Origin: Psammoneis japonica
Taxonomy: Eukaryota
Reading direction: 5' to 3'
Assembly: GCA_008632985.1 (NCBI GenBank)
Contig: QPGO01000114.1
Location: 62,001-126,000, forward strand
Length of the DNA: 64,000 nt
In this document: one piece after another, positions 24,616-59,400 of the stretch
Position numbering within the stretch: position 1 is the first letter of the stretch
How the letters are laid out: each line of letters starts with the position of its first letter
Translations under genes and position numbers: made by a program
Notes under the pieces: generated by a model
Told to the model about the DNA's origin: nothing
Database searches by the model: none
What the model saw: only the letters and a program-made list of their open reading frames with translations

Positions 24616-24939
24616 ACCGAGAGAGGGCAGTGTATCATGCGAGGGTTCTTTGGTTTTGCTGGGTTCGGTTGAGTATGCTTGCGGTATCCTACTTCTGCAG
24701 CCACCATCATTCCAAGCAACCACCAAACAACGAAATACATACGCAGTTGGAATCAAGACAAGTCGAGTCTTCAATCAAGTCATTGCAAAGTCGGTCTTGA
24801 CCGGGAAACACACACACCAAACTGCCTAGATCATACTTCGAAGTAACAAAATCAAACAATGTTCACACGTATTCCTCCTTATCATCGTTCGAATTAGCTG
24901 AACGAAGCAGTGTTGGATCTCGTCGCAGCAGCAGAAACG

Positions 24940-26500
24940 TCAGCTCAACGTCCCCATGTTCACTGTGCGCGGCTTGCTGAAACGGGTACAGCTTGGTGCA
25001 ACCATCCCTCGATGCAAAGTGCCTGGGTGATGTTCCAGCCGAGCCTCTTCATCCTTGAGAGCATTGTCATCTGGCGATGAGATTCCCTGCAGCTTGTCTT
25101 GGCGTCGCCTTTCTTGTGTGTGTGCAATCGCGACATGCAAAGGAAGGCGACCGGAAGCGTCCGAAACCCTGCACGCCTCGGGAAATTTCGAAAGAAGAGA
25201 GGGGTCTGGCGAGCTCCCGTTGATGTTAGTCGGGTTACCTGTCACTCCTGCAGGAAAACTCTGGTGACATTCTCGTCGACTGGCAGCAAAATGCAGTGGC
25301 GACCGTCCGGTCCTTGGGTCTCTGATTTTCAAGAGTTCTGGATGAGCCTCGACAGCAAGGCCAACCAAAGCCAGAGGACAAATTGACAGCGCAAGCGGAG
25401 TGAAGTGCAGGGATTTTGTTTTCAGTGGTGTCAAGTTCCACATGAACATCACCACCGTCCAGCTGCTCAAATTGGAGCAGAACCATGATTGGCAATTGCA
25501 TGTGCAGTCGATCAATCAAATCATTGCATTGGACTTTAGTCACTTGACAAGCACTCATTTCAAGAAGTTTGCCTTTGCTCAAACATCGCCTCGAAACTTG
25601 TGTCTTTCCATGAACAATGCAGTGATGAAACATCACCAAGAGACATTGAGTGGAAGGCCAGATGAGTTGGTGACAAATTGAACCCACATCAAGTCCAATG
25701 GAAGAGGTCTTTTACATCTGGCACATTCACACATCTTGGCTCTTCTTCCACCAAGAGCTGCCTTGTGACAGCAATTGAGGCATTGAATGCAGCTGCAATG
25801 ATGTGTGGAGGCATCTCACAATGATGACACATCACCACTTTGTGGCACAAGTTGACTCCCTTGGCCCTGCTTGCTTCAATGAGAAGTTGTGCCATTTCAA
25901 ACCCCCTTCCACAGAGAATGGCACATGCCAGGGGACTTGTTGGAACGCCATCACCATGTGGAAAATCTGGTTGGGTGAAGTGGCAGTTTTGGATTGAAAG
26001 TGACATGTTCAAGGCAGTCTTCAAAGCACTGTGACAGATCATCGATTTTGCTTCAGAAGCAGGAGCTGCGCCATTCCACAAAGGAATTTCCTGTTTGCAC
26101 CTCCTTCCAACAGGATTGTCTTCCAGTCTGGGGACAAGCAGAAGTGGAGTCAAAGGTGCATTGCTGTCTGCATCAATTTGCAAGACACAGCATGGATGTT
26201 GCCTGACCATGTGCTTGAAAGCCCTCTTGTTGGCACTGCTTGCTGCTTGGCCAAGATTGAAACCTTGGACAATGCTGCCCACCATGTGATGCAGTGCTGG
26301 AAGTCTTCCCAGCTCATCTTTTCCAGCAAACATGATGGTGCAGGGCAGGCACATCTCTTTACAAACAACAAGTGTTTTGAGGGTGGTTGGCTGCCACTGT
26401 TTTTGGCTTGAATTCTGCCACACAGCTCATGTTTTGCATCATTTTTCCTGAATTTCACAGTGCTTTGCCATGGTGAAAACATCAAGCCACAAGTCTGTGA
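24940..26500 (-). pseudogene. Ankyrin-like repeat gene, TpA-converted
   Basis: AHPELLKIRDPRTGRSPLHFAA, FPEACRVSDASGRLPLHVAI, DELGRLPALH. AHPE stands where AYPE is typical; almost no TA dinucleotides. Confidence 0.6.
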
Positions 26501-26812
26501 CAGATGTGGTCCATCTCCAAACTCTCATTTGTGTCATGTTCTTTGTGCATCAAAGATCTCATGCACATGAAAAGTTTGAGGACCACAAGCTGTGTTTTTG
26601 AGAAACATCAATGATTGTCATCATGGTTGTGCTTTGATCGTGGTGAATGATGTTCTCATTTTGGACTTCATGGGCAATCTCGTCCAAACAACAAGAGTGT
26701 TGTTTGCATTCAAAAATGGACACCAACAAACAACCTCACTTGAATGCCAAGGTGATTTTAGGACAAACATGAGGATGACCCCCCTTGAGAGGCACAACAA
26801 TTGTGCCACAAA

Positions 26813-27112
26813 TGTCGCGGAACATGACTCAGGCGGGACTCAGATGATTGGGTCCCGTTCACGAATGAAGAGTCACGTGATTTCTGGTCACAAGAATCAC
26901 GGCGAACCGGGATGTTTGCGATCCAGGGACGATGGTCCCCCGTGATGTTTGACGTGACGTTTGGACGTGTTACTTTGAGTTTGACAGGACTGTAATTCAG
27001 AAGAAGTAGAAAAGTAGATTATAATTTAGCGAGAGAAAAGTGAAGACCATTAATTTTAGTTTTGTGTGCTGCTGACAAGGTGTTAGTAGCATCGGCATCT
27101 GGTTGTCCAACA
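26813..27112 (+). repeat. 5' LTR (300 bp)
   Basis: TGTCGCGG...CCAACA; aligns to 32245-32548 with 8 substitutions and one 4-bp indel. Confidence 0.95.
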
Positions 27113-27171
27113 CGATATATGTCGACAGTTTGTGGCAACACTACATTCGAGAGTAGTAAGTGAGAGAAGCG

Positions 27172-28233
27172 ATGAGCAAGGAAGAACAGACCTACGAGAC
27201 TTCTTTGTCGTGGAGCGGCAAGAGAGAAGACTTCGAGATTTTTTTGGTGAAATTCGAGGCGTTCGAGAGCGACCACGGTTGTGACGAAGCAACCGATGTG
27301 GATCTAGGAGATAAGCTTCTCACCAAGGCGGAATACGTGAATGGAAAGAAGAAAGTAACGCAAGCTAATGGTACAGAGACCGAAGAAGACCTCACAAAGG
27401 AGGACAAGAGGTTGTACAAGCTGAATGCGAAATCATTTTCGAAGATCATCCGTGCGTTGCCTGAAAACTTGATCAAGGCCTGCAAGAACCAAGGTGGACC
27501 CAAGAAGTCCGTTTATTTGATCAAGGAGTATCTCAAGAAACACTACTCGGAGCAGAATGTGGTAGATGATTACCAAAACCTCTACAAGAAGAGGTTGGAG
27601 CTAGAACCTGGAGAGTTCGAGATAGCGCTGTTCTATTTCAACGAGTTGGAGGATATTAACTCCAAGTTGGGAAAGATTGATGAAAAGTATCGCTTAGACG
27701 AGCTTCAGTTGAAGACTGATATCTATTCAAAAGTCCCGGATCAAGGTAACTGGTCCTCTTTCAAGTCCGAGTATCGCAAGGACGGCGCGATGGAGAACAT
27801 TGCCTACAGTGCGTTCAAGCAGCACTATGAACGGGAGTGGAAAGCTCATGGTCCACCAGGAGGATCTACTACATCTATAGATCGATCTTCTGGAGAGGAT
27901 AAGACCCTAACTATGAAGGTACAGGGCAGCAAGTTTTTCCCGGGTAATTGTGGGAAGTGTGGCAAGAAAGGTCACAAGTCAAAATTTTGTCCTGACAAGA
28001 AGAACGCCAAGACGAAGAAATTCGATGGCGATTGCTTTTATTGCGGCAAGCATGGACATAGAGGGAGCGACTGCTTCAAGAAGAAGAAGGATGAAAAGGA
28101 GAAAGACGAAGAAACGAACGAGGTTACACTCGGAGTGTTCGATTCCGTCGACTTGGTTGAGGAGGGTAAGGACCCTATTCCAGACTCCTTCTTCGATACC
28201 TTCGATACTAAGCCCTGCAGTTCGAGACGATGA
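27172..28233 (+). CDS. gag: Gag with two CCHC zinc knuckles
   Basis: CGKCGKKGHKSKFC and CFYCGKHGHRGSDC. Intact ORF with normal Tyr content (15 Y). Confidence 0.9.
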   Translation: MSKEEQTYETSLSWSGKREDFEIFLVKFEAFESDHGCDEATDVDLGDKLLTKAEYVNGKKKVTQANGTETEEDLTKEDKRLYKLNAKSFSKIIRALPENLIKACKNQGGPKKSVYLIKEYLKKHYSEQNVVDDYQNLYKKRLELEPGEFEIALFYFNELEDINSKLGKIDEKYRLDELQLKTDIYSKVPDQGNWSSFKSEYRKDGAMENIAYSAFKQHYEREWKAHGPPGGSTTSIDRSSGEDKTLTMKVQGSKFFPGNCGKCGKKGHKSKFCPDKKNAKTKKFDGDCFYCGKHGHRGSDCFKKKKDEKEKDEETNEVTLGVFDSVDLVEEGKDPIPDSFFDTFDTKPCSSRR

Positions 28234-31200
28234 GTTCGAGAGAGAGCTTAAGAGGTGGGATACTCGGTCTGGACTGGGTTACGGCTACGATAGTAGCGGC
28301 GAACGCGCGCTGTCATGGTACGAATGGAGCGAGATGGCGGACGATGAGGACGAAGAAGACGATGACGGCATGAGTATGCCGGAGCTAGAAGGTCCTTTTA
28401 TTTCAGATAAGGTCGAGGATGAAAGTATCCCGCCCTTGGAACCGCGATATGATTCCGACAGCGATTCGGATGATGACGAGTCATTGGAGCTGATCGGCTC
28501 TCAACGCAAGTGCACCAACTGTGACGGGCCTGGACATGTCTATCGAGGCTATCGCACAACGAAGAAAGTTCAAGACGAGGACAAGGGAGACGAGGAAGAC
28601 AGTATCCCGCCCTTAGTATCTCGTGGCGGTTATGATAGCGACTCGAGCGATGACGAGTCGGTTGAATTCGAGGTTGTTTGCTCGTATTGCGGACAGCCTG
28701 GACACGAATTCTGCACTCCTTTCCAAGAGTTTTGGAATAACCCGGATGAAGAGAGCGATGATGACAGTATTCCGACTCTAGAGAGTGGTATGGACTCGGA
28801 TAGTGATTCAGAGTCCGAGTTTGATTACGATTCGGACGACGACTATGACGAAACACTGATGTCCGGTGCGCAGTATGAACCAGAACGTGGCGGTGTAAGG
28901 CTACTATTGGACTCTGGCTCGACAGCACATACTAAGAGGTCTGGTGAAGGGATGCGGAACCTCAAGGAAGTGAACAAAGTCATGAAGGACGCACACGACG
29001 GGAGTTCGATAGAGAAGCTCCAAGGAGATTTTCCATTTACGCGTCAGAATGGGGACGGTACAGTAGTTATTACTGAGATGTACGTCCAGCCAAATTTTTC
29101 ACATAACATTGTGAGTCTGACGAAGCTATTTGAGAAAAATTGCAAGCTGAGTCCGAAGACTGATCCCAAACGAGCCATTGTTCTCGAGTGCCCTGATGGC
29201 ACGGAATTAATTTTCGAAAAATCAGCGAAAGATGGGCTGTTTTATATGGAAGTTGACTCGCTGACGGATGTGTCCGAAATGACCGCAGACGTTTCTGATG
29301 GACAGAAAGCTGGACAAAAAGAGTCGGACAAGAAAGTCCATGTGAACCGCGCACACATTTTGCTGAACCACATGGGAGAACGCGCGATGAAAATGGCGGC
29401 AGCAGATCTCGGTTGGAAATTGACCGGCATACCCAAGACCTGCGAGTTCTGTGTCAAGGCAAAGGCTACAGCAAAGCCAACCGTGAAGGCTAGCGATAAG
29501 AAAGCAACCAAGCCTGGTCAGCGGCTCTGCCCAGACACGTCAGGACCATGCAAAGCGACGCGCGGCAAGAATCGATGTCATGCGATGACAGTCGATCAAC
29601 TTACAGATCGACTTTGGTCGATGTTCCAAGCAAAGAAAAATGGTTTTACGGACGATGTCAAAGCTTTGTTGACTAAGCTGAAGGGTCAGGGGTGCCCAGT
29701 CGAGTTCTCACAGATCGACAACGCTCCGGAGTGGGGTGCACTCAAGCCAATTTGTGATGAGCATGGGATCACGATCGAGCACACCTCCCCGAATGCTCTG
29801 CAGTTCAACGCGGCAGTCGAGAGAGCGTTCCCAACAGTGCGCAATGTGGCGTGCGCGGTGCTGAAAGCATCCGATTTCGACGACGCAGAGCAAAGTCGGC
29901 AGTGGGCGAATGCGCTGCAGCGCTGCACTGTCGTTCGTAACTTGGTCCCACGTGGGGACTGGAGCCGAAGACCTGGTAGAGTTTGGCGCAAAGGGGTGGA
30001 TGGCCAAGAGAAACAAGATCAAGGCCAAGTTTCAAGATCGTGCCGAGGAGGTTCGTCGCGTGGGATGCACTGAGAATCACTCGAGCGACACGTGTGTCGT
30101 TCAAAAGTTGTCCAATCGTCGTTGTGTGTTGACACGCAACGTGGCATGGGAGTCTAAAAGACGACATGATCACCTAGACCCCGAGACAGTGGTCGAAAAG
30201 CAAACTCCGCGAGTGACTTGGGCGGACGACGCAAGACCGTCAACAGTGGTTGAAGAGATGTCACGCCCCTCTCAGTCATCCGCAGATGACCCCGACTTTC
30301 ATGATTCTCATTCACAAATTGAGGAGGGAGAAGAGAGTGCAACAGACGGCGAGGAACCAACGGATGGCGAAGAAAGTGACTCCGAGATGGGTGTGCCACC
30401 TGATGGACCAGGACAGACGGATGAAGAATCAGCTGTGAACAGTCGATTGGAGTGCGAGTTGAGCAAGCTGAGGACTTCTTGTGACCCAGCTGGTCTCCCA
30501 AGCAACGACGAGGACGAGGCAGAAGCGGTGAATGTGGTCGCAGGACATGTTGATCCTGAGAATGATCGCGAAGCGATGACAGGCAACGAAGCTGACGAGT
30601 GGCGGAAGGGTCCAGTCACAGAGTGCGATGGATTTTTCGACTTGAGAACTTGGACACTGGTCAAGGAAGCCGAATTGAAAGGCAAAAAGACATCCAAGCC
30701 GCTGTCAACGAAGAACGTCTGCAAAAAGAAGTTACACGCGACAACAAAAGAGGTGCGGCATCGCGTGCGCAACTGCACTCGGGGGTTCGATGTGACACCC
30801 GGAGTTCATTTCGATGAATCTTTTGCACCTGCTCCGACGGATCACACTGTGAGACTCATGTTGGCGATGTCATTGTGGATGCTGGAACAGTTGGAAGTCG
30901 ATGATGTTGACGAAGCCGAGAAGGAGTGGATTGTCGGGCATTTGTTCGATGTTGTGCAGGCATTTCTGAACTCAGAGATGACTGGACCACCTGTGCATGT
31001 GCATCTTCCCCCTGTGTGGAAGGAGTGTTGCGAACACAAAGGTTGGGAGTGCAACGAGAACGATCTTGTTTTGCTCGGAAAGGCGCAATGTGGGCAAGTC
31101 GATGCCGCGAAGCACTGGATTGATGTGTTTGTCAGAATCATGACTGAAAAGGGCGGCGTCGAGCTTAAACGAAGCAAGACTGACCCTTGTGTGTTGCACC

Positions 31201-32244
31201 GTCATGATGACAAGGGGCAGTTGGAGACTGTCATTTTGATTTGTGTGGACGATGGTTTCATGTGTGGGAAGCCGGAAGTCGTCAAGGAAGCCAAGGACCA
31301 TCTGGCGAAGAGAGTTAAGATGCTGGACATTGGACGAATCGACACTCATTTGGGAATTGATTGTGAGTTGAAGAAAGACGAACACGGTTGGTGCTTCGAG
31401 TGCAGCACGCGCAAGTGCGTGGAAAAGATGGTTGCGGAGTGCGAACAAGGCTTCAACAAGACACTTGAGGATTGCGAGACACCTGGGGAGCCAGGGAAGA
31501 CATTGATGAAGGCGGACGAAGACCATGAGCCAGTCGAGCAAAACGGATGTCGAGCCTTCGTCGGAAAGATCCTGCATGCGATGTTGAAGGTCTTGCCTGA
31601 TTGCGCGAATGCGATTAGAGCGCTGACAATGCATTTGACGGATCCAACTGGGGATCACTGGCACGCGCTGGACAGACTTGTGGGACATCTGAAATTTCAC
31701 TGTCAGCCGTTGAAGTTGAGGTCACCTTTGGAATTAAGGAGCACAGGGATGTTCGACGCTGAGTGGGGGACGGACAAGAATGACAGAAAGAGCATTTCGA
31801 GTGACATTTCCACACTGGGCGGTGCGTCGTTGACCAATTGGCAATCGAAGAAGCAGACCTCTGTGGCGCTGAGCAGTTGTGAAAGTGAGACCATGGCGGG
31901 CACGGTGTGCGCGCAGAGCATGCAATTCCAGAATCATTTTGTTGGAAGAGCTGGTGGGTGCGGACATGTTGAAGATGCCGAGTCACGCGGTGCGGAGACA
32001 ACGCCGCATCACTGTTTCTGGCTGTCAACAACCAAGTGGGACAGCGGACGAAACACACTCACATTCGTGACAGATGTTTGGGCGAGTTGGTTCAACGTGG
32101 AGAAATTGAACCACGTCATGTCAGTGCGGAGAAGAACCCGGCAGATGTCAACACCAAGAACGCGAAGATCGAAACGCACAAGAGACTAGCTCAGAACCTG
32201 CACGACGGATTCGTGATGGTTGAACTTGAACCAATCAAGGAGGG
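28221..32244 (+). pseudogene. pol: Pol (protease, integrase, RT, RNase H), hypermutated and frameshifted
   Basis: PR LLLDSGSTAH; IN H-x4-H..CEFC, RLCPDTSGP, QFNAAVERAF; RT FDVVQAFLNS, KAQCGQ, ILICVDD; RH DAEWGTD..DRKSIS, WQSKKQTSVALSSCESE, RTKH. Frame changes at ~29960 and ~31940. Confidence 0.93.
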
Positions 32245-32548
32245 TGTCGCGGAACATGACTCAGGCGGGACTCAGATGATTGGGTCCCGTTCACGAATGA
32301 AGAGTCGCGTGATTTCTGGTCACAAGAATCACGGCGAACCGGGATGTTTGCGATCCAGGGACGATGGTCCCCCGTGATGTTTGACGTGACGTTTGGACGT
32401 GTTGCTTTGAGTTTGACAGGACTGTAATTCAGAAGAAGTAGAAAAGCAGATTGTAATTTTGCGAGAGTGAGAAAAGTGAAGACCATTGATTTTAGTTTTG
32501 TGTGCTGCTGACAAGGTGTCAGCAGCATCGGCATCTGGTTGTCCAACA
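32245..32548 (+). repeat. 3' LTR (304 bp)
   Basis: Preceded by a polypurine tract; matches the 5' LTR. Confidence 0.95.
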
Positions 32549-32639
32549 CACAAACTTGGTTGTTGTTTGTTTGCTGATGTTGAAGACAAGTGTGGTGCAC
32601 ATGAATTTAATTCTTGCACTGCAGAGCTTGCACACAGAA

Positions 32640-35300
32640 TTCTGCAGGGCCAATGTCACATGGAGTCCCACCCACTGGGACTGGAACATGTCTGGTGCTG
32701 TCCTGTTAATCTGGAGCTGGGAATTTCAAATCTCTCTCTTTTCTGGCATGGATGAAGTGACTTCTTGGCACCACAACTGCACCAGATGGGCCTTGTGCAA
32801 TGCTCAGCCACAAAACTCTCACATTGTTCCTTGGCGGGTCACACCACGGTGTCCTTTCACTCTTGAGTTGAGAGCTTCAAGTCTTGCTGTTTTTCTGGTG
32901 GGGACAGAGTGATTTGGTGACAAAGTTGCACCAAATGAGCCACATGAAGTGGCTCAGCCAAAATTCTTGAGGTGTTCCCTGGGTTCCAAGAGCCCCCCCC
33001 CCCCCCCCCCAACACCCTCTGCCTGCAGTTGTTGAGTTGGTTGGCCACATCAGAGCTCCAAGTCTCATCCTGAGTGACTGGAGGGCACAGCTGCGCCAGA
33101 GGGAGGAGCCTTGAATCACTCAGCTGTCATTGTCACAGCATTCCCTGTGCACGACCAGAGACCATCAATGCCCTCAGCCTGCAGTTGTTGTGATGGTCAC
33201 TTGGTGGCATCAGAGTCTCCTTGCATTCTGGAGTTGGGAACTTCAACTGTCATCATGCCATGGACAAAGTGAGCGGGGTCAGCCAACCTTCTCAAAGTGT
33301 TCCCTGGGCTCCACCAGAGACCCACAATGCCCCCAGCCTGCAGCTGTTGTGTTGGTTGGTGGCATCAGAGTTTCCTTGCACTCTGGACTTGGGAGCTCTT
33401 TGTCAACTCTCATCCTGGCATGGATGAAGCAACTGGGGGGCACAGCAGCTGCTCAAGAGTGCCTTGCAACACTCACACATCACTCTCAAAGTGTTCCCTG
33501 GGCATGACCAGAGACCCTCAATGCCCTCAGCCTGCATCAGTCATTGTGTTGGTTGGTGGCACCAGGGCATCCTTGCTCTCAAGAGTTGGAAATTTGTTTG
33601 GCTCTCATTCTGACAGGGATGAAGCAACTGGGGGGCACAACTGTGCCAGGTGAGCCTTGCAACACTTGGCTGCCATTCTCAAAGTGTTTTTCCCTGGGCT
33701 CCACCAGATGTCCTCAATGCCCTCAGTCTGCAGTTGTTGTGTTGGTTGGCAGCATCAGGATGTTCTTTCACTCTGGAGTGTTGATGGGAACTCAAGCTCA
33801 TCTCATTCTGCTGGTGTGGGTGAAGAGACTGGGGCCACAGCTGTGCCAGATGGGCTTTGCAACACTCAACTCATCGCACTCAAAAAGTGTTCCTCTGGCT
33901 TCACAAAGAGACCCTCAGTGTTCCCAGCTTGCATTGGTTGTGTTGGTTGGTCACATTGCAGGGTGTCCTTTTGTTCTGGGACTTGGGAATTTTGGCTCTA
34001 ATTTTTGTGTAGATCAAGTGACCAGAGGCCACAACTGCACCAGGTGAGTCTTGCAACACTCAACCACCATTCTCAAATTGTTCCCTGTGCTCCACCAGAG
34101 ACCTTCAATGCCCTCAGCCTGCAATTGTTGAGTTGGATGGTGGTGCAACTGTGTCCTTTCACTCTGGAGTTGGAACCTCAACTCTCATCCTGGCATGGGG
34201 AAAAAGTGACTGGGCGCAAACTCCACCAGACCAGCCTTGCAAAACTCAGCCACCACTGCCACCCCCCAAAGCATTCCCTGGATTTCACCAAAGACCTGCA
34301 GTCCCTCAGCCTGCATTTGTTTGGTTGATTCTTGGCAGTGTCAGAGCATTCACTCACTCTTGAGTGTGGAGCCTTGTCTCAGCTGTCACTCTGGTGTGGA
34401 TGAAGCAACTGGTGGGGGGCACAGCTGCACCACATGACTTGTGGAACACTCAACCACCATTCTCACAGTGCTTCCTGGGTTCCACAAGAGATCCAAAATG
34501 CCCTTGGCCCACAGCTGTTGCTTGCATTGATTGATGGCATCATGGTGTCCTTTCACTCTGGAGTTGGGAGCTTCAACTCTCATCACCTGGAATGGGGATG
34601 AAGTGGCTGGGGACCAAAGTTGTGCCAGATCTGCACAGATTTGCAAGCACGTGTCATGCAAGACATGACATGAACAACTTGGGTGCACCAGCTTCAATCA
34701 GGTGAGAAACATGTCACTGAATGCAAACAAACAAGGGCAAAATGGATTTGGGCAGCTGCATGTTCCACAAACAGGTGCGTGTCAGGCATGTCAATTGTTG
34801 CATTTAAGTTGGAAAATGAAAAACAACACGAACATGTTGGGGGGCAGCATTCGGGTGAACGATGAATGTGGGCATGTGCAAATGAATTAAAAAGGTGGGG
34901 CAACAATGAGAGACCATGCAAATCAACAAGTGAAGGGGACGACGGAACATGCAAAGAAGTGCGCCCAACAGTTGACAGTGGGGGATGACATGACCTGTGA
35001 TTCATGTGGCTCTTTTGCCTCTCTGATGGCCCAGCTCTCACTCTGATGTGAGTGAAGCAACTGTGGGAGCCACAACTGCTGTGCACCACATGAGTTGTGG
35101 AACATGCAACCACCATTCTCAAAGTGCTCCCTTGGTCCCGCCAGAGACCAAAAATGCACTCAGCCTGCATTTGTTGTGTTGATTGGTGATTGGCGGCATC
35201 ATGGCATCCCTTCACTCTGGAGTTGGGAGCTTCAACTCTCTCATCTCCTGGCATGGGGTTGAAGTGACTGGCAGCCAAAGCTGTGCCAGACAAGCCTTGC
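32640..35300. repeat. Degenerate tandem array of ~160-200 bp units (>=10 copies), TA- and CG-depleted
   Basis: Recurring ccctcagcctgcagttgttgtgttggttgg..cactctggagttggga..ggatgaagcaactgggg..caaccaccattctcaaagtg at ~33175, 33335, 33528, 33725, 33925, 34115, 34307 and 35161. Confidence 0.8.
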
Positions 35301-36244
35301 ATGAAAGGAGGAAAGAGAAGCAGCTCAGGAGCATGCCACTCTCTGGATTGCAGCACAACTTGAGATCAAGTCTCAGCTCAAGAGGAGCCTTGAGCAAATC
35401 AGTCAGAGAGAAAGTGTGGCCGTGCTTTGGCACAACAAAAAGACTGCCTGTGGGGCTTTTGTGCCAACTCTTCAAATGCAAGGGCTTGCTGGTGCTTGCT
35501 GTGTGAGAAGAGTGACTCATGATGAGGCACATCAGTGCCCAATGACAGTTGCTGCAGCTCTCTGGCTGGGGTGTTGTGCTGGGTGGCACACATGACTCTG
35601 CCCACTTTGTGGAGCACCAGCACATGCAAAGCTGGTGGTGTGTCTGCGCCCACTTGGCATGCTGGATGGCACACACTCAACCTGCACAGACACACAGATG
35701 TGGCACTGAGACAGCAAAAAAAAAGTCTCTGCTGGAGTCCACAACCTTCCAAGACATGGCTGGAAAGATTGAACAAAAAAGCAGTGTTTGGTCAACTGTC
35801 AGAAAAGATCTTGTGAGATTGGCCTCTTGGCGGTGACCGTGATGCCAAGCACCTCAGCAAGGAAGTCCCCTCTGCCACTTGGTGCCTCTCGCATGCAGTG
35901 ACAGGTTCAGCCACTCAGATCCTGCTCCCCCCCTCCAAGTGCCAAGCTCCCACAAAACATGAAAAGAGTCCACAGCGGCATTGGCGCAGGCACTGTGCCC
36001 GCCCGCCCGCCCGTCCGTCCATCCGTCCGTTGAGAACATTCGTGACGAGCGTAGTATGTCTTGCATCGCGATTGGGAACAGATTGCAAGCACCGTAGTCC
36101 GACTACCGTACAAAAGGATACAGAACTATGCGCTCTCTTCATTGTTCGTTTGAACGCATTTCTGAAAGCAAGATGATTTATAAGCATTACGCATTCTTCT
36201 TCTAAAACAACATTACACAGAACTGACTCCACCACTGCGGCAGT

Positions 36245-37665: not shown

Positions 37666-38459
37666 GGTTTCGGAAAGCAGACTTGTATGGCAGAACAAAC
37701 AAGCTTAGGTCAGATTGTGGTAAGCAAGAAGCTTATGGCAGGCAACAACAACAACAGCAACATACAACTACTACTCTTGCTGCATTGATCTGGTGTAGCG
37801 TGAAAAATGACTCGTCCTGACGTTGAACGCTTCGGATTTCAATTATGTTTTTTCTCCATGCACTTTGAATTTGAATGAAATGGGATTCTAGTTTAGAGAT
37901 ATAATATAATCAAATACTACTCTATGCAAACCTTCAATCTTTATAAAAATGAAATACATTAAGTATCGACTCAACGCTTCTCGTCAATGAATATTGTTTG
38001 TTTAACAATGTAGGATATCGCTCGATGCATTTTATTCGTGTGCTTTTTTTGAAATTTTTGTCCAACGCGTATTCAATCACGTACTTTATTTATCATTGTA
38101 ATTCCCGCGCATTTTTTTGAAAATTTGAGTTTTCAACCGTTGCTTAGAGTCGTCTCTCCATCGAGCGGCGACCGACTTTGATGATGGTGCCAACCCTATT
38201 CCTTACTACCTACTACAACAGTGTCTGTTGCCTGTTGCTGTTGCTCGACTCAACAATCAAGTTTGTGGTTTCTTAGACCAAGCTGTTCAACTGGCAAACG
38301 AGGGCAAGCTTGCTTCTGCCCACCCCCTGCGCCTGTGTGAAACCTCAGCACGTATCGTCTGCAAGCAGGAGCTCGCGATACGGCAATGAAAGAGAGAGAG
38401 AGGATGCAAAAAACAAACTAGCCTGTATTTCGAAGTCACAATACAAAAACTATTCTTTC

Positions 38460-50696: not shown

Positions 50697-51830
50697 ATGG
50701 CCAACAAAATGACAGCACGAGACGACGACGAAGATGAGGCCTTGTTCAACATGGATGTCACCATGGCTGTGGTGGCCAAAAAGAGGGGCCCAAAAAAGGA
50801 AAAGAGGAGGAAACAACTCATTGACACAACGCCGACTGTGCATGAGCGAAAAGCAGAAAAGGAAGAACAAAAGGTCTCCAATCAAGCCTTTCGTGATTTT
50901 CTGCAGGGAGCTGTGGTGTGTGGTCTGTGTTTGACTCTCCCCACCTTGTTGGGGTTCACAGCAAGATTTCCCAAATTGCTTCAACAACGACATGCCGGCC
51001 TGGTTCTGGAAGAGCCACAAGATGCACTGGAAGTTGAGAGCTGCCATGCATGCCATTGCAACATGGCGAGTGACTGTCGCACTGTGGCGAGTGGCCATCT
51101 GTGCACAAGCTGGGGACACACAAGTTGGTGCTTGCCAGATTCTGCTTCAGAGGAACAAGAAGACTTGGTTGCACACTCAACACGACTTCTGCCGCATCGG
51201 ATGCCATGCTGGTTTCCATTCTGAGCTTGTCCATGGCGGTCATTTGGATTTTGCTTGTGCACGCTCTCATTCCGCAATGCGGCACTTGGAGAGTTCATCA
51301 AGACTTGAAGCCTTGGTGCGAAGCAAGTTGATGCACTTGCTTTCAAGCTCTTGTTTGCCAACACCCAAGAGCAGTGAGGATGATCAAATGAATCGTGAAT
51401 TTCCTCACGAATCTCTGCCGCCTCTCCCATTTGACGCGAAAGAAGAAAAGAGAAACAAGCCGAATCCAGAACCAGCTTCGGAGTTGGATGATCAAGACTG
51501 GATTGTCTCTCTCAGCCGCAGTGCCAGTCGATCCTCCCTTTTGGCCTTGGGGCATGACCTTGATGACGAAGCGAACAAGGATGATGGTAAAACACAGAGC
51601 GACTCTCACAAACGACATCAAGACAAACCAAAAACTCGTTTGTTTGCTGCGCCACGACATGCCACAGCCATCTTTCGATTGGGGTGCAGCGCTGCTGCAT
51701 GCACATGTGCTTTGCTTTGGTTTCGAAACGCCAGCTTTTGGCCTCCGCACGCAGGGGGAAACATGGGACAATCGACTCGTAATTGTTGGGATTTAAGAGG
51801 GGGCTTTGGCGGTGATGTTGCGGTGCAGAC
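50697..51830 (+). pseudogene. TLC-domain (LAG1/ceramide synthase-like) gene, TpA-converted and truncated
   Basis: PRHATAIFRLGCSAAACTCALLWFRNASFWPPHAGG..STRNCWDL, with H/C at positions where Y is expected; N-terminal TM segments. Confidence 0.55.
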
Positions 51831-52366
51831 TCTTCAGTCGTGATCCGTTTGCATGACAACGGACCAGCAGCAGTTGGGCGAATGCAGCAGTTGTTCCCGC
51901 CGGTGGAAAACAATGTGTCAAGCATGAAACAAGAAACGCAGCACCAGCACAAAATGTTTGCGGTCAAGAACTCAGAACAAGAGGCAGAATCCTCGGCTGA
52001 AGAAGAAGAAGACCAGGTCTTCAGATGAAGAGCTCTTTCAATTGAAGCACCCTCATCAAAAGAGCAAGACTGAGTCGACTGGAGCAATCCTGAAGCAGCA
52101 ACAACGACACTCCTCCAACTCCACAGGCACCCTTCTGGCTCCGACAACGATGAACTCATCTTTCTTCTGATGCCCGCAGCAATGATGATGTGTCCGCTTT
52201 CCAGTCGAGATGACTGTGCCGCTGCGCAAAGGTCACTCAATGCAAGCAAGCTCCGCCCATTGTGAGTCACAGTCCTTCCACACGTGTTCGTGTGCACTGT
52301 GCTCATGAAGCTGCGGCTGCTCGACACTGCAGCAGGAATCGGGTGAATGCCAAAAGCATTGGTTGT

Positions 52367-52490
52367 TCAATCCATCAACCCCACAATGGCGTCAAGGATT
52401 TTGTCGCGAGTTTTGTTGCTCTTGTTGCGCTCAAAGGGTGTCTCACCCAAGACGAGTTCCAAGGTGAGCACGCCAAGCGACTGCAAATTC
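52367..52490 (-). pseudogene. Ser/Thr protein kinase fragment (subdomains IX-X)
   Basis: LQSLGVLTLELVLGETPF...TRDKIL resembles DxWSLGVLxYELxxGxxPF. Confidence 0.5.
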
Positions 52491-52879
52491 CTTGCAGTGA
52501 GCATTTGGAGACTTGTTGGTGGTGCTCGACATCGCATTCCAAGACGAGATGGAGGTGGGTCGAATCCTGAAAGCAGCCACAACAATCCAGAATGAGCGGA
52601 TGATTGAGACTGCATGTTCAACACAGCAGCAGAAGAGGGGGGTGGGGGGCATGACAGGAGTGAGGAAGAAGGCATTCTGCAACTACACTGCCCTCCACAA
52701 TGGCTCCGGGACAAACACCAAGTTTCGCAGTTTCGTGACGACGGTGACAACGACACTCACCGACAATGAATTTCCATTTCCTGCGTGGAATTGCGGGTCA
52801 TTTATGAGCAGCTTTTGTTTGCAGAGTTGCTCAATGGCAACCGCTTGGTGCGTTGGAGATCGTGCCGCAAGTGTGGACT

Positions 52880-53410
52880 TCCCCTTGCCACGGAAACTGA
52901 GCCGAGCAGGAATCAGAGGACCCCTTTTTGGTCAAGCTGACTTCATCACACCCAAAGGATGCAATGATCACTTGGGTGTGCTTGCCGTGTCTTGCTTTGG
53001 TTGTGAAGAACCAGCTGCAATGCACAAAGCCGAGAATGACGATTGTTCCAAACTCATGTGTCAAACCGTTTTGTTGGAGTCTTTGCGGAACACTTGCACC
53101 GACAGATGCATGTCGATTTGTGGGGCAATGCCAAGGACAAAAAGCTCGACGAGGCGGACTTGTTGAAGATCACACACGATGGGATTCGTCCTGCTCCAGG
53201 ACGCCAGTCACAACAGGATCACATGGAAAACACAACAATGTGGAGCACGATCAAGGCGAAGGAGTTGGCGGGCATTGAATTGAGCGAATCTCTCAGCACA
53301 GTGCAAGCAAGTCCTGTGTCGGCCTTGGCATTTGCCCACCCTGAATCTCAGTGCTTTGCGGTGGGACAGGTTTTGGCAAGGATCAAGTCGAAAGCCACTC
53401 AAAGAGGAAG
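52880..53410 (+). pseudogene. METH: B12-dependent methionine synthase, C-terminal activation domain fragment, TpA-converted
   Basis: ADFITPKG.NDHLG..AVSCFG, NDDCSKLM, FAEHLHRQM..DLWG, HDGIRPAPG..SQQDH, GIELSES..SPVSAL.FAHPESQCFAVG, KDQVE match MetH motifs, with Y>C/H. Confidence 0.85.
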
Positions 53411-53499
53411 GGTCTTGAGCTCGGCGTTGCCGAAAGATGGCTGTCTCCAGCATTGAACTGCCGGGTGCGAACGTGCTGCAGTGGACCATGCAGAAAATG

Positions 53500-54971
53500 G
53501 ACTTGTGAGCACATTCTTTGAACTCTTCATCCACTTGACACTGTCCAAGGAAACGCCAGAATGCACTTTCCAAAAATGCGAACCATGCGAACATTGTGTT
53601 CGTGAATCGGGCAAAGCGTGAAAGCATGGCAGCTGCCAATTTGGCACTCATCTTTGGGAGCCAGAATGGTCTTCAAAGAACAATGGGAATGCTCGCAGAC
53701 TTTCCTGCGTGCAATTTGCAACAGAGATTGGTTCCCTCAATGCACTCCTCTTGATTGATGTCTTCGGCATCGCCATCGTCATGTTCAACGACACCACCAC
53801 AAGAAACTTTTTTGAAGCACTTGGAAAATGGGACATTCGCCATGGGTTTCTCAGCTGTGTCTTTGGCTGGCATCTTGCCACCACCATTCTCGGAACCATC
53901 AGGAGCAGAGAGCAAAGTCTCCGTCTTCGCCGAGTCGGGTTTGTGAATCGGGTTTTTGGCCAGCATCTTGCCACGGCCATTCTCGGAAACGTCAGGAGTG
54001 GAGAGCAAAGTCTCCATCTTCACCAAGTCGGATTTCTGAATCAGGTTTTTGGCTGGCATCTTGCCACCGCCATTGTCGGAACCATCAGGAGCAGAGAGTG
54101 AAGTCTCCGTCTTCGCCGAGCCGGGTTTCTAAGTCGGGTTTTTGGCTGGCATCTTGCCACCGCCATTCTTGGAAACGTCAGGAGCAGAGAGCAAAGTCCC
54201 CATCTTCACCGAGTCAGATTTCTGAATCGGGTTTTTGGCTGGCATCTTGCCACCGCCATTCTTGGAACCGTCAGGAGCAGAGAGCAAAGTCCCCGTCTTT
54301 GCCATGGGTCTCTCATCCGTGTCTTTGGCTGACATCTTGCCACCACCATTCTCGGAACCACCAGGAGCAGAGAGCAAAGTCTCCGTCTTTGCCATGGGTT
54401 TCTCATCCGTGTTTTTGGCTGACATCTTGCCACTGCCATTCTCGGAACCGTCAGGAGCAGAGAGCAAAGTCTCTGTCTTCGCCGAGTCGGGTTTTTGATT
54501 CGGGTCTTTGGCTGGAGTCTCGCCACCGCCGTTCTCGGAACCGGCAGGAGCAGAGAGCAAAGTCTCCGTCTTCGCCATGGGTTTCTCATCCGTGTCTTTG
54601 GCTGGCATCTTGCCGCCGCCATTCTCGGAACCGTCAGGAGTGGACAGCAAAGTCTCCGTCTTCGCCATGGGTTTCTCATCCGTGTCTTTGGCTGACATCT
54701 TGCCACTGCCATTCTCGGAACCGTCAGGAGCAGACAGCAAAGTCTCCGTCTTTGCCGAGTCGGGTTTCTGATTCGGGTCTTTGGCTGGAGTCTCGCCACC
54801 GCCATTCTTGGGACTGTCAGGACTGGAGAGCAGTCCACACTCACTCGGGCTTGGAGGAGGAGAAGGAAAAGTCACCGTCTTCATCAAATCGTGAGCTCCA
54901 TTCAGCAATGCTTCCGACGACGTGTCCTTCGCACGCTTTGATGCATCAGGGTTTCGATTTTCACTGCCCAA
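53500..54971 (-). pseudogene. Repeat-rich protein with a C-terminal Tudor-like 'V.YDDGD.ED' motif, converted and frameshifted
   Basis: KCFKKVSCGGVVEHDDGDAEDINQEEC follows a tandem peptide repeat. Confidence 0.5.
53840..54825 (-). repeat. Coding minisatellite, ~11 units of 90/93 bp
   Basis: AKTETLLSAPDGSENGGGKMPAKD(TDEKPM/PNQKPDS) repeated; two unit types interspersed. Confidence 0.92.
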
Positions 54972-55848
54972 TGCAGGACCTTTCTTGGCTTCAGAGAGGC
55001 CCTGTCTGCCTCCATCCGGTCCACGCAGTGGAGAGAGGTGAAAAAAAGCAATGAACGAGTTAGGAAGATGGTGCGGAAAGAAAAGGAGTGGAGGTTGTTT
55101 GACTCACGATGGGATGAACAGACGATTTTTCGACATGATCTTCGGATCCGGTCTGCATTGCATGGAGACGAGAATGCAAGCATTGAAAGAATGAGAAACA
55201 TGGCACAAAGAGAAAAGGAGTGGACGTGATTTTTGTTGAAAAGTCCGTCACTCACGATGGGATGGATTCACGAATTTCCGTCGAGACCGGCGCCTTGTTG
55301 TTTTCTTCGTGTGAAAGCTTCATTGCAGTGAGATGCAGTCTCTTGTGCAATGGGGTGCACAAAGATGTCGGAGGTTGGCAGCAATGTCAACAGCAACAGA
55401 GACAAACAGACTTGTCAAAGTCGTTCTCTTGATATTGTGGCAAAAGTTCGTTGGTGATTTTGAAAAAGCGACTTGTTTTCGGCTGAATGAATCGACGAGT
55501 CTGGGTTGCAGTGGTCGTGTTCTGTCTGCGACCAAATGGCGTTGAATCATGACTGTCGTGACCCAACAAGAGTTCTTGCAAACAGGCATGGAAAATGTTG
55601 CAACATGCACTGAAGCCTGCGCAATGGAAAGGAAAATTGTGACCTGCTTTTTGAGGAGTCGAGGCGCATTGCGTCAATCAGAGGTCCGGAATGTGACCGA
55701 CTGAGACGACGTGTTGAAATGCTGCGAAGAGGGAATGACGAGGAAGAACTCAGTCGGTTGGCAGTTGAGTTGATGGGCTTGTCACATGAATCCGGAGTCC
55801 CCTGCGCCAGAGTGCATGATTCCTTGAACTTCGTAAGACGAGTTCACA

Positions 55849-56238
55849 GTGAGTGGTGACAACGATGTCCCCACAGCTCACCCCGAAGTCATTGATCTCA
55901 CGGGAACCGACAACGAAGTCATTGATCTCACCGAAGCCGACAACGACGTTGTTGATCTCACTGAAAGCGATGACCAAGAGGACAAAAGAGAACAAGAAGC
56001 GACGGAAACCAGACAAATGACGTTGGTTCTCTCCGCTGGAGTGTTTGTTGTGATCTGTGCCAACTTTCATTGTGGATGGTTTTTGTTGCGTGGAGTGGCG
56101 GTTTCATGTCCTTTTTGCCATGCAAAGTGGGCTCTCTTGCGCTCCAATGTCATTGCGCATTCCGTGGCGTCTAGCGGCAACTGTTGGGACCGGGGTTTCA
56201 TGCCGGCATTGCAGCCGACCACCCGAGTCCAAAATTGA
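55849..56238 (+). pseudogene. Fragment with three tandem SIM-like motifs and a Cys cluster
   Basis: EVIDLTG, EVIDLTE, DVVDLTE (30-bp period), then CANFHC..CPFC. Confidence 0.4.
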
Positions 56239-56699
56239 TTGACACGAGTGTTTGTCGTTTGTCGTTCCGCCCGGATCTCTGGGGCCACTGCCAGTTTGAA
56301 CACCTTGGCCGGGACACAAACATCTCTGTGGGATCCAGGCCATTGTGGAGAGATCTGAGCAGTGGCCACAGCTAACATCAGCTGTTGCAGATCATCAGCG
56401 ATGAGGTCGAGAGTTCAAGTCATTGGAATCGGCGGCCACTGCATCCCCGTCGATCCACGTTGTCACCGTCGCACTCAATCATTTGATCCAGTGGGTCAAT
56501 GGTCCACTCTCAGTCTGACTCAATGCCTTCACTGTCACGGACCGGATTGACAAATTCACCTTCCTCTGTCCCTTTGCCTGATCTCTGACCTGCGCTGCTC
56601 TCGTCAGACAAGGACCCGCCTTCAACCGGTGGACGACCTTTTTCTTTTCCACCAAAACTAAAAAAATGTTGCTTCCGTGAAATGAAAGTTCAATGAAAA

Positions 56700-58560
56700 G
56701 TGCTTGCGAGGACATCACTGTTGGACAAGGGGCATTCGATGCCTTCGTGGTGGTGATTCAAGACGCACCTTTTTCGTTTTCGACCAACGTGCTCCTGGGT
56801 TTTGCCCGTCTGCTGATGAGCGGTCGCTGCGGCGAAGTTGTCGAACCACCAGCAGCGTTGCAACTGCCACGACAGACAAGACTGTCGCTGCAACATGCAG
56901 CGCCCAATTGATGTTGCCCTTTCCACCACCTTTGCTGCAGACCGGCGCTGTGAAGGAATCAACATCTTTGGAAAGCTCTTGAATGCATGAGCCACACTGT
57001 TCTTTCAGGGGCAGCTCAACCACCATTTTTTGATGTGTTGAAAGTGTCGATCGTTTCTCCCTGGACTCTGATCTTGACATGCAGAGCTGCTTGGGACAGG
57101 TGTCAGAACAATGAGCGCACAATGCCGTCACTTTCACTGTCTGGCTCGTGCAGAAACTGCGAAACGACAAGAACGTCGTGAATGACGTGCACCTCCACTG
57201 GCAACTGCCGGTTCAAGACGGTCTTGGCAGCATGGTCAAAAGCTGCCTTGTCGGTTGAATCAGTCAGCTTCGTAAGAACATCCGCAAAGAGGAGTGTCAA
57301 GTCCACAGATGCCTCATGAAATTCTGCGGAGTTGGCTTTGGTTGGGCTGGGAATGCTTTGCTTGGGATGGAGCGGGTGTCAAGGGGGCTGTTGAAATTGT
57401 TGTTTGGTGGGTGAAGACGGGTGCAGGCTGGGAGCCGCAGATGGATTCGACAAACAGCCTTCCTCACTGGCGCTCGGTGCTGAAGAAACAGTCTCAACTC
57501 CAGAAGGTGCGTTTGAAGAACCCGCAGTGTGCATGATGCTGACGGTTGGTCAAGGGTTGGCAGATGGAAAAGCGCTTGGTGAAAGCTCATCGTCGGAGAA
57601 GCGCTGAATGATGGAACACCACTGGGTGCCGGGCCGCTCGATGGAGCTTGTGTTGCGACATGGTTGCCTGCCCATGGCATCCATTTCGTCGACCCAATTG
57701 CACTGGAGGGCGCCACACATGTGAGACACTGGCCATTGGCTTTGCTTTTTCTCCCAAAAATGGGCCCGCAATGTCCAACAGGACAAGCAATGCCCTCACA
57801 CCCACAGCGATTCGGTTGGAGCCCAATGATGCTGAGCACAGCACACAATGCCGGTGGAACTTCACCCACGAGACCAACGCCCAAGACTCGGAGAACTTCC
57901 AACGGAAATGCACCGAAGCATTGAGGAATCTCGCCATCAATGGATGTGTTTCCCGAAATGTCAAATGCAAGGAGCTTCGTTGGTTCAGGAATGAGAGAAC
58001 GTCGGGAATTGAACCAGAGAAGTTGCTTGCTGCCGATTCCAGATGAGCTCTTGCTCCCAGGATGAGGTCGGAAGGACCCCTGAAAGCCTCTTGTTGGAAA
58101 GATCAACGCTGGCAACAAAACCGTTTGCATCATGGACAACACCTGCGAAATCACAGCAATTGTCAATGGCGGGCCATTTGTGAAAGCTCTTGGACTGGTG
58201 ACACCCCACATTGTCAGAGTTGCAAAGGGCGTTTGGGGCCTCAATTTGGTCGAGTTCCTCGGGAGCCCAGGTTGCAGTCGTCGTGGGTGCCAGAAGACTC
58301 TGTGCTGCGCTCGGCATCAGAGCTTGCGGGAGTGGCGGCAGCTCGCACACATCACCTTCGCAGTGGACTGCAAGCAAGCCGGCCTCAACCTTGGTCAAAT
58401 TGGCGTCAACCAAGGGGTCAGCAGGCGATGCAATTGGGGCATGTTCCGAAAATGTGCCATGCCGACATCCAGTGGGATCATCCATCCATTCTGTTGTCTG
58501 TGGCTTCGTGAAGCGCAGATCCGCCTTTTCCATGTCTCAAGAGAATTCCCACACCTTTGA
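56700..58560 (-). pseudogene. LRR receptor-like gene, TpA-converted
   Basis: CCDFAGVV..VASVDLSNKRLSGVLP, FDISGNTSIDGEIP, LVGEVPPALC, CGCEGIACPVGHC..FGR, Pro/Ser/Thr stalk; frameshifted. Confidence 0.72.
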
Positions 58561-58770
58561 TTGCACCAGGCCTGCCGAGTGTCAGGGCATTTCAGCTTGA
58601 GTGCATTCAGTCTGGTGCTTCTAATCCGGGTCTGACTGCAAGTGCTTCTGCCGCTGTGTTGAATGTGTGCGTTGGAGGGAGTTTTTCCAAATCAAACTCA
58701 CGCAGAAGTCTGCGTCTTTTTCGCACTGCATGCACTGACCAGTCGAATCATCATTCAGCAAACCATCAAA

Positions 58771-58890
58771 ATGGGTTCAATCGCTGAGAGCCTGTTGACT
58801 GCTGCATCGTTCTTCCGCCTGAGTGAACGAGGCGCAGATGTCATCAGTGAAGTCCGTGCGGGCACTGCTTCCTTTCTGATGCTGAGCTGT
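58771..58890 (+). pseudogene. AzgA/NCS2 purine permease N-terminal fragment
   Basis: FFRLSERGADVISEVRAGTASFLMLSC matches the family start FFKL.E.G....TE.RAG..TFLTM.Y (terminal Y>C). Confidence 0.7.
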
Positions 58891-59400
58891 CGGCCCTGTT
58901 GCTGGTGTGCCTGCGGATTGTGGCTGAAGCTGGTGCTCCGGGAATTGGTCTCAGCGCTTTTCTGGCTTGTGGACTGGTCCAAACCGACGACTTTGCACTT
59001 GAACAGGCACATGAAATTTGTCCCAGAAGCGATCAAGCACGCAAGCGTTGTTGACATGACTGGTGTTGCAGCAACGCCTCGAACGACTCTAGCCGTGTGC
59101 AGCATGAAATCGAAGATGACAACATTGGCGATGAGGAACTTTGCGACTTTGACGGCCACAACGATGCCTGGGCTGTGCCGAAGAAGGACGGCAAGTCGAG
59201 CAAAGACGACAATGGGGTGAGCAAGTCAGCTGCTGTGACCATCAGACACGACGAAGAGAGCAACGCAAATGCTTGGGAAATCAAGAGAAAACAGTTCAAG
59301 CCAGGCTACGATCATTCCCCGAAGCCGGATGATGTGACCCCGGACTCTCCTGCTGCCCGTTTCGCTGCTTTGGTCGGCACTCCATGGGGCCAGCGACGCA

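Follow-up and report, generated by a model that had tools for sequence, protein, structure and literature searches.

A 64,000-nucleotide stretch of Psammoneis japonica DNA (contig QPGO01000114.1, positions 62,001 to 126,000 of the forward strand; hereafter the window) contains three domains from which the dinucleotide TA has almost disappeared. Within these domains TA was changed to TG or CA in genomic DNA. In a Copia retrotransposon the change continued after insertion, and across the domains it follows a rule on the neighboring base and is independent of CpG decay. The underlying process is specific to TA, acts regionally on both strands, and outpaces CpG decay and, by a wide margin, background change. 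Our reading, to which we give a probability of roughly 60%, is that each domain is a silent-DNA island where a mutational process restricted to certain loci converts 5'-TA-3' to TG or CA (A to G, on either strand). The analysis covers this 64-kb window only, for which we calculated the observed/expected ratio (o/e) of TA per kb, TA positions, counts per 100 bp, and the lengths of TA-free gaps. Outside the Copia element, the depleted domains are:

24896..26812, no strand: depleted domain 1, with 7 TA in 2071 bp and CG at 27.5/kb
32555..36051, no strand: depleted domain 2b, a ~195-bp satellite-like array, with TA at 1.7/kb and CG at 9.4/kb (32550-36050)
44507..59306, no strand: depleted domain 3, 14.8 kb long, with 46 TA in 14,791 bp and a diffuse right edge that extends to 59570

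The ratio of observed to expected TA was 0.00-0.14 per kb at 25-27, 30-36, and 45-59 kb (rising to 0.19 at 50-51 kb) and 0.37-0.94 in the rest of the window, and the ratios for TG and CA reached 1.5-2.0 in the depleted stretches. For pooled composition, we compared the depleted stretches (24.9-26.97, 29.7-36.05, and 44.5-59.3 kb; 23.2 kb together, or 23,213 bp) with 40,278 bp of normal sequence. The depleted parts held 73 TA where the normal parts predict 972, a loss of 92.5%, and TA density was 3.1/kb compared with 41.9/kb. Pooled o/e in the depleted parts was ~0.05 for TA, 1.59 for CA, and 1.56 for TG. The longest TA-free gaps were 1349, 1327, and 1292 bp in the depleted parts and at most 292 bp outside them; at the outside TA rate, the probability of a gap of 1000 bp or more is 2e-19. 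Depletion was confined to the three domains, the remainder of the window being normal. An earlier sequence-only reading of the window had described multi-kb domains nearly devoid of TA at ~24.9-26.9, ~29.5-36.0, and ~44.5-59.3 kb, and these counts confirm it.

Domain edges were 100-700 bp wide. They lie at 24895|24987, 26759|26971, 36052, 44506, and 59307-59570, with a graded edge at 29497-30175 that falls within the Copia element. At 36.0 kb, on the 3' side of an LRR gene, TA and CG both switch within 100 bp; CG o/e at 33-36 kb is 0.06-0.15. Neither a tRNA nor a match to any Rfam family was found in the window, so the edges are not marked by a boundary element of the tRNA type. Just outside the left edge of domain 3, at 44115-44513, are two A-rich direct repeats of ~200 bp that are 90-98% identical.

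The composition of the depleted parts is that expected from transitions at two dinucleotides. Relative to normal sequence, TA fell by 38.8/kb and CG by 17.3/kb, and TG rose by 32.3/kb and CA by 21.2/kb. The combined loss of TA and CG (56.1/kb) is close to the combined gain of TG and CA (53.5/kb), which indicates that both TA and CG were turned into TG or CA by transitions. Apart from TA and CG, no dinucleotide dropped by more than 18%, and G+C content increased from 47.5% in normal to 50.7% in depleted parts. Biased gene conversion is contradicted, since ApT is down only 18%. Together with the domain counts, the mass balance supports the proposal, already made from the letters alone, of a regional and near-saturating change of TA to TG or CA in genomic DNA.

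Fungal repeat-induced point mutation (RIP) resembles this pattern in producing regional, near-saturating, dinucleotide-specific transitions that disable repeats, with sharp compositional domains. Unlike the process in the window, RIP changes C to T, mainly CpA to TpA, so that TpA is enriched and stop codons are created, whereas here TpA is destroyed and no stops are made. RIP is thus contradicted by the pooled TA, CA, and TG ratios, and also by a multi-copy segment of the Copia element that is unmutated.

The Copia element, which one of the edges crosses, gives the direction and timing of the change. Its parts are:

26808..26812 (left) and 32550..32554 (right), + strand: target-site duplication (TSD) ACAAA, read directly
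26813-32549, + strand: Copia element, with long terminal repeats (LTRs) of 301/305 nt, a purine tract before the 3' LTR, and TSD ACAAA
26813..27113, + strand: 5' LTR; the first 158 nt are without TA, the last 143 nt have 11 TA
26971..29497, + strand: 5' part, with the R/U5-like LTR end and the gag zf-CCHC and Pol_BBD domains (Pfam); TA 40.8/kb
29498..30175, + strand: graded edge within the element; 7 TA in ~680 bp
30176..32244, + strand: reverse transcriptase (RT)/RNase H part; RVT_2 at E=3e-21; TA nearly gone
32245..32549, + strand: 3' LTR; 4 TA left compared with 11 in the 5' LTR

Domain 1 belongs to an old island, poor in both TA and CpG, into which the Copia element inserted, and forms its left part. 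The open reading frames (ORFs) on its minus strand gave only a weak Ank_4 match (E=1.9e-4, below the cutoff).

The two halves of the element separate TA loss from CpG decay. In the 3' part (29700-32240) TA is at 3.9/kb, and CG, at 68.9/kb, is as frequent as in the 5' part (62.3/kb). Because CpG is intact in the TA-poor half, its TA loss is not due to CpG decay, which is rejected as the source. Decay of 5-methylcytosine at CpG shares the excess of TG and CA but cannot remove TA. It is present as a separate, older overlay in the older parts of the islands, including 33-36 kb. The statement of the sequence-only reading that neither RIP nor CpG decay produces the pattern is thus supported.

Tyrosine codons, which begin with TA, show what TA became. 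The Copia pol ORF (29865-32186) has no Tyr in 774 residues, whereas seven homologs have 2.8-4.9%. We aligned these seven homologs (43-49% identity in the joint alignment) and kept columns in which at least 75% were Tyr. At the resulting 16 conserved-Tyr columns the window has Cys 11 times, His 3 times, Phe once, and Arg once. Two motifs illustrate this: YVDD/HVDD reads CVDD (nt 31242) and KAQYG reads KAQCG (nt 31080). All of the altered motifs that had first suggested the direction of change, other than one discussed below, are present (CVDD, KAQCG, SQCFAVG, and DDCSK). TAY>TGY and TAY>CAY are intermixed on one strand, so A changed to G on both strands. The ratio of Cys to His (11:3) is a non-significant lean to the plus strand, and the context rule given below predicts ~55% TG. 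At two conserved Tyr positions, one at 31986 (codon CGC) and one in a methionine synthase relic (PGY>PGR), the residue reads Arg (TAY>CGY).

The LTR pair dates part of the change. Alignment of the two LTRs showed eight substitutions and one 4-nt indel. Six of the eight substitutions are TA in the 5' LTR and TG (three) or CA (three) in the 3' LTR; of the remaining two, one is TA versus TT and one CA versus CG. In other words, 7 of 11 LTR TA sites changed, compared with a single non-TA substitution in ~300 nt, which is the one indirect sign of an elevated de novo rate. Since the element has a target-site duplication, its LTRs were identical at insertion, and conversion therefore acted on DNA after the insertion. 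Both the Tyr columns (14 of 16 Cys or His) and the LTR pair bear out a direction of TA to TG or CA on both strands. One feature of the 3' LTR is puzzling: its last 146 nt, the R/U5-like end, were only 64% converted, although both neighbors are saturated. Two histories would explain the LTR pattern equally. The 3' half and U3 could have come from complementary DNA (cDNA) of a mutated copy, followed by further conversion on site, or conversion in place could have been uneven.

We note that the first 158 nt of both LTRs (26813-26970 and 32245-32402) contain no TA, where ~6.6 would be expected, and differ from each other at one position. Among the differences from paralog contigs that were listed, the only one in the LTR start is at 26880. 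The TA-free LTR start may reflect descent of the family from a mutated master copy, or adaptation.

Unmutated copies of this Copia element were not found in a first scan of metagenomes. A profile scan recovered ten distant Copia loci with 33-63% identity, too distant for a DNA spectrum. Their TA o/e was 0.24-0.59, none near 0.05, with TG/CA at 1.25-1.83 and reduced CpG. The lowest value belonged to a metagenome contig of 1536 nt (L002; TA o/e 0.24), possibly a copy that underwent partial conversion in a different organism.

Tandem repeats show the same change in DNA without retroelement structure. For depth, we used 31-mer contigs (longest 315 kb) from a public run, X1, in which 79% of sampled words of 44400-54399 were present and contig depth in unique parts was 58.7 (~59). 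Contigs over the ~195-bp satellite array had a summed depth of 144-1527, compared with 59 in unique parts. In 20 of its column pairs, the two most frequent dinucleotides have neither letter in common; 8 of these pairs alternate between CA and TG, and no other type occurs more than twice. A second array lies in domain 3:

53836..54852, no strand: 93-bp tandem array of ~11 units (Tandem Repeats Finder)

In this array, two dinucleotide columns have CA:TG ratios of 8:3 and 10:1, without remaining TA or CG, and CpG columns are still mostly CG. Alternation of CA and TG among repeat copies indicates that the changes arose in place. The satellite array also contains a run of ~17-19 C at 32990-33010.

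These observations bear on an origin at the RNA level, in which A-to-I hyperediting of double-stranded RNA by an ADAR- or ADAT-like enzyme would be fixed through reverse transcription of edited transcripts. ADAR editing of double-stranded RNA and APOBEC3 editing of cDNA resemble the pattern in the window in that they make clustered transitions, obey a neighboring-base rule, and inactivate mobile elements. ADAR favors a 5' U, like the TA step in the window, and U-A is described as a favored context of both ADAR and ADAT in those sections of a recent preprint on which we draw (Mettrop et al., bioRxiv 10.64898/2026.01.13.699255). The TA-free LTR starts and the depleted 3' half of Copia are also what would be expected of cDNA made from 3'-edited or 3'-mutated RNA. 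However, the substrates of these enzymes are RNA or cDNA that has yet to integrate, whereas the window shows changes in non-retroelement DNA and after integration. RNA editing predicts identical LTRs, but the LTRs differ at six TA sites acquired after insertion; satellite and host-gene relics without retroelement structure are equally depleted; and repeat copies differ in situ between CA and TG. In addition, ADAR prefers a 3' G, unlike the order T>C>G>A of the base after A in the window, and APOBEC enzymes make G>A or C>T changes instead. We consider an RNA-level origin very improbable.

The depleted sequence is present in sequencing reads. Two X1 contigs (1004 and 870 nt, depth 66-80) match 44464-46308 with one and two other letters, respectively, so the reads carry the depleted sequence and an assembly artefact is unlikely. 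A second run, X2, is from the same sample as X1; its contigs give no cover over 32.5-35.8 and 43.8-46.5 kb, and we conclude nothing from this hole. A third run from that sample, X3, provided no matching contigs, and no RNA run is listed as containing the sequence. The sequence-only reading had proposed raw reads from independent platforms as a check on artefact; X1 may, however, be what the assembly itself was made from. An error of sequencing, base calling, or assembly, such as the misreading of a modified base at TpA, would still gain from the fact that the platforms of the assembly and of X1 are off record and that the only run holding the sequence may be that source sample. However, contigs of 31-mers at depth 59-80 reproduce the depleted sequence, gene relics in the domains carry the frameshifts and truncations expected of real decay, and the clean choice of TG or CA at each site, in Tyr codons and repeat columns, is unexpected from misreading on both strands. 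An artefact thus has only a slight chance of being the explanation.

Comparison with paralog contigs from these reads is based on 40 listed rows out of 993 differences, and all counts below derive from those rows. In the depleted part of Copia, nine rows comprised five in which the contig has TA and the window TG or CA (29550, 30096, 30165, 30260, and 30906), three in which the contig has TG and the window CG, and one other. Ten rows fell in the normal LRR gene (37356-37449), where it is the paralog contig that is mutated, with four changes of TA to TG or CA, four of CG to TG or CA, and two others. Mutated copies of genes that are normal at this locus therefore exist elsewhere in the genome.

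Targeting looks positional, or domain-based, rather than repeat-based, as judged from where the edges fall. Over 1582 nt, a contig of depth 217 matches Copia 27262-28844 except for 10 letters and a single gap; two of the six differences listed are TG or CA in the window and TA in the contig. Contigs over the 3' half of Copia differ from the window by 4-15%. The first 2.5 kb of Copia are thus multi-copy yet keep 40.8 TA/kb, and the edge runs through the element. Copy number alone is therefore no trigger. The suggestion of the sequence-only reading that transposable elements or duplications are targeted is not demonstrated, since an edge crosses the multi-copy Copia element and the largest domain holds host-gene relics and not transposable elements.

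We also considered homology-triggered targeting like that of RIP, in which duplicates would be recognized and mutated and the islands would simply be where repeats lie. The islands do contain a multi-copy Copia element, a high-copy satellite, and fragments that are necessarily duplicates of functional genes, and the mutated LRR paralog contig shows both TA and CG changes. RIP, however, mutates both duplicate copies. Here the multi-copy Copia segment (depth 217 compared with 59) has normal TA, and mutation in the LRR pair affects one partner only. Mettrop et al. also describe, in the sections on which we draw, a main target that is single-copy. Targeting triggered by homology is accordingly improbable, and targeting by position is preferred.

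The surviving TA sites reveal a context rule. We classed each TA by the base after the A on each strand and took the expectation from normal sequence. TTAA sites (A on both strands) kept 46% of expected TA (18 of 39.2 expected), followed by A and G (19%), G and G (14.5%), and A and C (12%). Sites with T in this +1 position on either strand kept at most 3%, and sites with C on either strand, when the other was not A, kept at most 5%. Heterogeneity among contexts was strong (chi-square 108.7, 9 df, p=3e-19), and an additive two-strand model gave doses of 2.42 for T, 1.81 for C, 1.04 for G, and 0.41 for A. The target rule is thus TAY > TAG >> TAA (TAT > TAC > TAG >> TAA). The rule is equally readable as a T preceded by a purine.

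The closest known system is the TpA hypermutation reported by Mettrop et al. in mutation-accumulation lines of Bigelowiella natans, and the statements here on that species reflect the sections of the preprint on which we draw. Out of 302 nuclear mutations, 231 fell in integrated nucleocytoplasmic large DNA virus (NCLDV) and virophage sequence, and 230 of these 231 were A>G or T>C, each of them in a TpA dinucleotide, with a rate of ~6e-7 per site per generation. The B. natans genome has 124 clusters depleted in TpA and enriched in CpA and TpG, and its depleted coding sequences are enriched in RT and DDE domains. The authors propose an ADAT2-like candidate and cite DNA activity reported for amphioxus and trypanosome ADAT2. 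This preprint, with its A/T>G/C hypermutation at TpA only, renders outdated the remark in the sequence-only reading that no described system was known. Our literature searches found no further account of DNA hypermutation specific to TpA, and nothing of the kind for diatoms.

The process in the window is probably of the same kind as the TpA hypermutation of B. natans, seen as a long-term end state in a second lineage. In both, TpA alone is targeted, TpG and CpA are the products, the effect is regional, and the lasting trace is sequence poor in TpA and rich in CpA and TpG. The B. natans process runs opposite to the normal AT bias of the genome, a likeness that we claim for the window as well. 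The two cases differ in what is seen, since a de novo rate was measured in B. natans and the window presents an end state with TA o/e ~0.05. The main B. natans targets are viral, with TA remaining (rho 0.45, NCLDV region), whereas those in the window are half of a Copia element, a satellite, and host-gene relics, with no viral genes found. TA makes up 4.2% of dinucleotides in the normal parts of the window compared with 6.0% genome-wide in B. natans. The +1 context rule is seen in the window, and flanking context goes unmentioned in the preprint text to which we refer.

If our reading of silent-DNA islands is correct, the process would act on chromosomal DNA once sequences have arrived, would outpace CpG decay and run near saturation, and would prefer an A followed by a pyrimidine. 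It would be targeted by position, to a chromatin-like domain with sharp edges, and not by copy number. Inactivation would occur by missense: no stops would be made, and every Tyr codon would be lost, along with many codons for Ile, Leu, Val, Asn, and Lys. Chemically, a deaminase similar to TadA or ADAT2, brought to silent chromatin, would turn adenine in DNA into hypoxanthine. We give this chemistry about even odds; the enzyme, its guidance by chromatin, and a role in defence are inferred. To our knowledge, the target of the tRNA deaminases, A34, always follows U33, a U-A step like the TA step in the window. Native TadA reads UAC, which fits TAY. No deaminase domain was found in the ORFs scanned (71 of the 146 ORFs of at least 110 aa, plus all those of at least 60 aa overlapping the domains).

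Several points weigh against this reading. The 3' half of Copia may have been inherited already mutated, through a chimeric cDNA, and not mutated in place, because the R/U5-like end of the 3' LTR is only 64% converted between saturated neighbors. The two Tyr>Arg cases require a second, off-context transition. X1 is possibly the source sample of the assembly itself, with its platform off record, and so is not an independent confirmation. The context rule compares surviving sites with a different, normal set of sequences. A>G on one strand is T>C on the other, so that thymine-directed chemistry fits equally. Finally, we know of no ADAT2/3 anticodon substrate with U35, that is, with U at +1, whereas TAT is the most depleted context in the window; the +1 preference of T over C thus mismatches the substrates of that enzyme.

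The thymine-directed alternative would have a TET/JBP-type dioxygenase oxidize the T of (R)TpA in silent chromatin to 5-hydroxymethyluracil or 5-formyluracil, which mispairs with G. It would yield the same letters, with TA>CA directly and TA>TG via the other strand, and it would read the context rule as a purine before T. Two facts count for this route: dinoflagellate DNA has 5-hydroxymethyluracil with a preference for TpA and TpC, and 5-formyluracil promotes T>C mutation. The sequence of the window fits both chemistries alike. The sole experimental precedent favors adenine deamination, likewise as a proposal (Mettrop et al., in the sections to which we refer). We regard the thymine route as unlikely, though somewhat less so than homology-triggered targeting, and retain adenine deamination as the preferred chemistry.

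Gene content in the islands was investigated with a Pfam scan of every stop-to-stop ORF of at least 60 aa overlapping the depleted domains. In the whole window, 71 of 146 ORFs of at least 110 aa were scanned, so that normal parts were covered in part, and one ORF, the LRR relic, was searched with phmmer against 1.84 billion representatives. We note that loss of TAA and TAG makes long open frames common in the islands, so these are not evidence of genes. In addition to the 3' half of Copia, the targets were relics of host-type genes:

46772..47387, + strand: 1,3-beta-glucan synthase relic fragments in two frames; PF02364 at E=9e-5 and 7e-7, both below the cutoff
52501..53453, + strand: relic of the methionine synthase (MetH) activation domain; PF02965 at E=8.8e-28 and 7.8e-6; frameshifted
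57300..58316, - strand: LRR receptor-like relic; phmmer best E=2.2e-27, 124 matches
59338..59667, + strand: DUF4116 fragment at the right edge; Pfam E=1e-20; old paralog of 192-486

A translated piece of 138 aa from the MetH relic contained no Tyr. Compared with human methionine synthase (PDB 2o2k, E=6e-22), the relic has N, H, R, A, and C in place of the five Tyr of the human chain, and the human motif SKYFAVG reads SQCFAVG in the relic. The LRR relic had no Tyr in 339 aa, compared with 1.9-2.7% in homologs, and its matches carry LRR_1, LRR_8, and LRRNT_2; its alignment contained no column with Tyr in at least 70% of sequences. The intact LRR gene (36757-37704) was rejected by comparison as a close paralog of the relic. 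DUF4116 matches are spread over many protists and bacteria. The DUF4116 pair (192-486 and 59372-59667) is too old to be used for a substitution spectrum, as 14 of 30 differences were transversions; the left copy has 3 TA. An AzgA motif with Tyr replaced by Cys, which the sequence-only reading had listed, was not found, and no permease matched Pfam at E<=0.01 in the stop-to-stop ORFs of at least 60 aa overlapping the domains.

These targets also bear on the idea that low TA is intrinsic, either because the islands are foreign or viral DNA or through selection against TA. Integrated viruses are targets in B. natans, according to the same sections of Mettrop et al. However, no ORF of at least 60 aa overlapping the islands had a viral Pfam domain, conserved Tyr positions are Cys or His, a TSD-flanked Copia element is half normal and half depleted, and the loss of TA and CG balances the gain of TG and CA. 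Intrinsic composition is the least probable of the alternatives that we weighed.

Other features of the window lie outside the domains. At 4808-7719 is an intact gene in which an SBP_bac_1 solute-binding domain is joined to a class-C seven-transmembrane receptor, and at 8317-10935 an intact ORF of 873 codons has EF-hands and an MFS transporter domain. The nearest Atlas clusters of the MFS protein are mostly Bacillariophyta, which is a lead and not proof. The window has ORFs of 571-873 codons that run without interruption and can be aligned with homologs along most of their extent. Such long uninterrupted ORFs are unlike the genes of B. natans, which are intron-rich. Inside the LRR gene at 36691-36779 (- strand), an X2 contig skips 89 nt that end in GT..AG. 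This gap resembles a spliced intron, and X2 may be derived from RNA though it is not recorded as such. A region similar to eIF3_p135/CLU is split over several frames at 41954-43290, where an X2 contig differs at 97 letters and has 20 gaps, so that a paralog or allele that has diverged from this region exists elsewhere.

Targeted A:T>G:C hypermutation of chromosomal DNA had no known precedent before the 2026 preprint on one alga. The window contributes an end state close to saturation, apparently from a different, diatom-like lineage, and it adds a retrotransposon, a satellite, and dead host genes to viruses as targets. It further adds independence from CpG decay, edges that ignore repeat boundaries, and a TAY rule that any candidate enzyme must reproduce. 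TA o/e provides a simple genome scan for the phenomenon across protists, and the young, half-converted Copia element is a natural substrate for measuring its rate. In annotation, Tyr-free and stop-poor pseudo-ORFs are to be expected in such regions. A natural TA-specific editor of adenine in DNA would be of relevance to base editing.

A broader idea, which is tentative and which we think more apt to prove wrong than right, is that DNA editing directed at TpA evolved long ago for defence or silencing and is widespread in the SAR group (stramenopiles, alveolates, and Rhizaria) instead of being peculiar to a single chlorarachniophyte, with a chromatin-guided, TAY-specific adenine deaminase. If this were true, transposons, satellites, dead gene copies, and viruses in silent domains would be irreversibly written off by saturation with missense changes. 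Mobile elements would perhaps already be adapting, as the start of the Copia LTR (158 nt), TA-free in both LTRs, could indicate. Eukaryotes would then have, besides RIP and APOBEC editing, a third way of defending the genome by mutagenesis.

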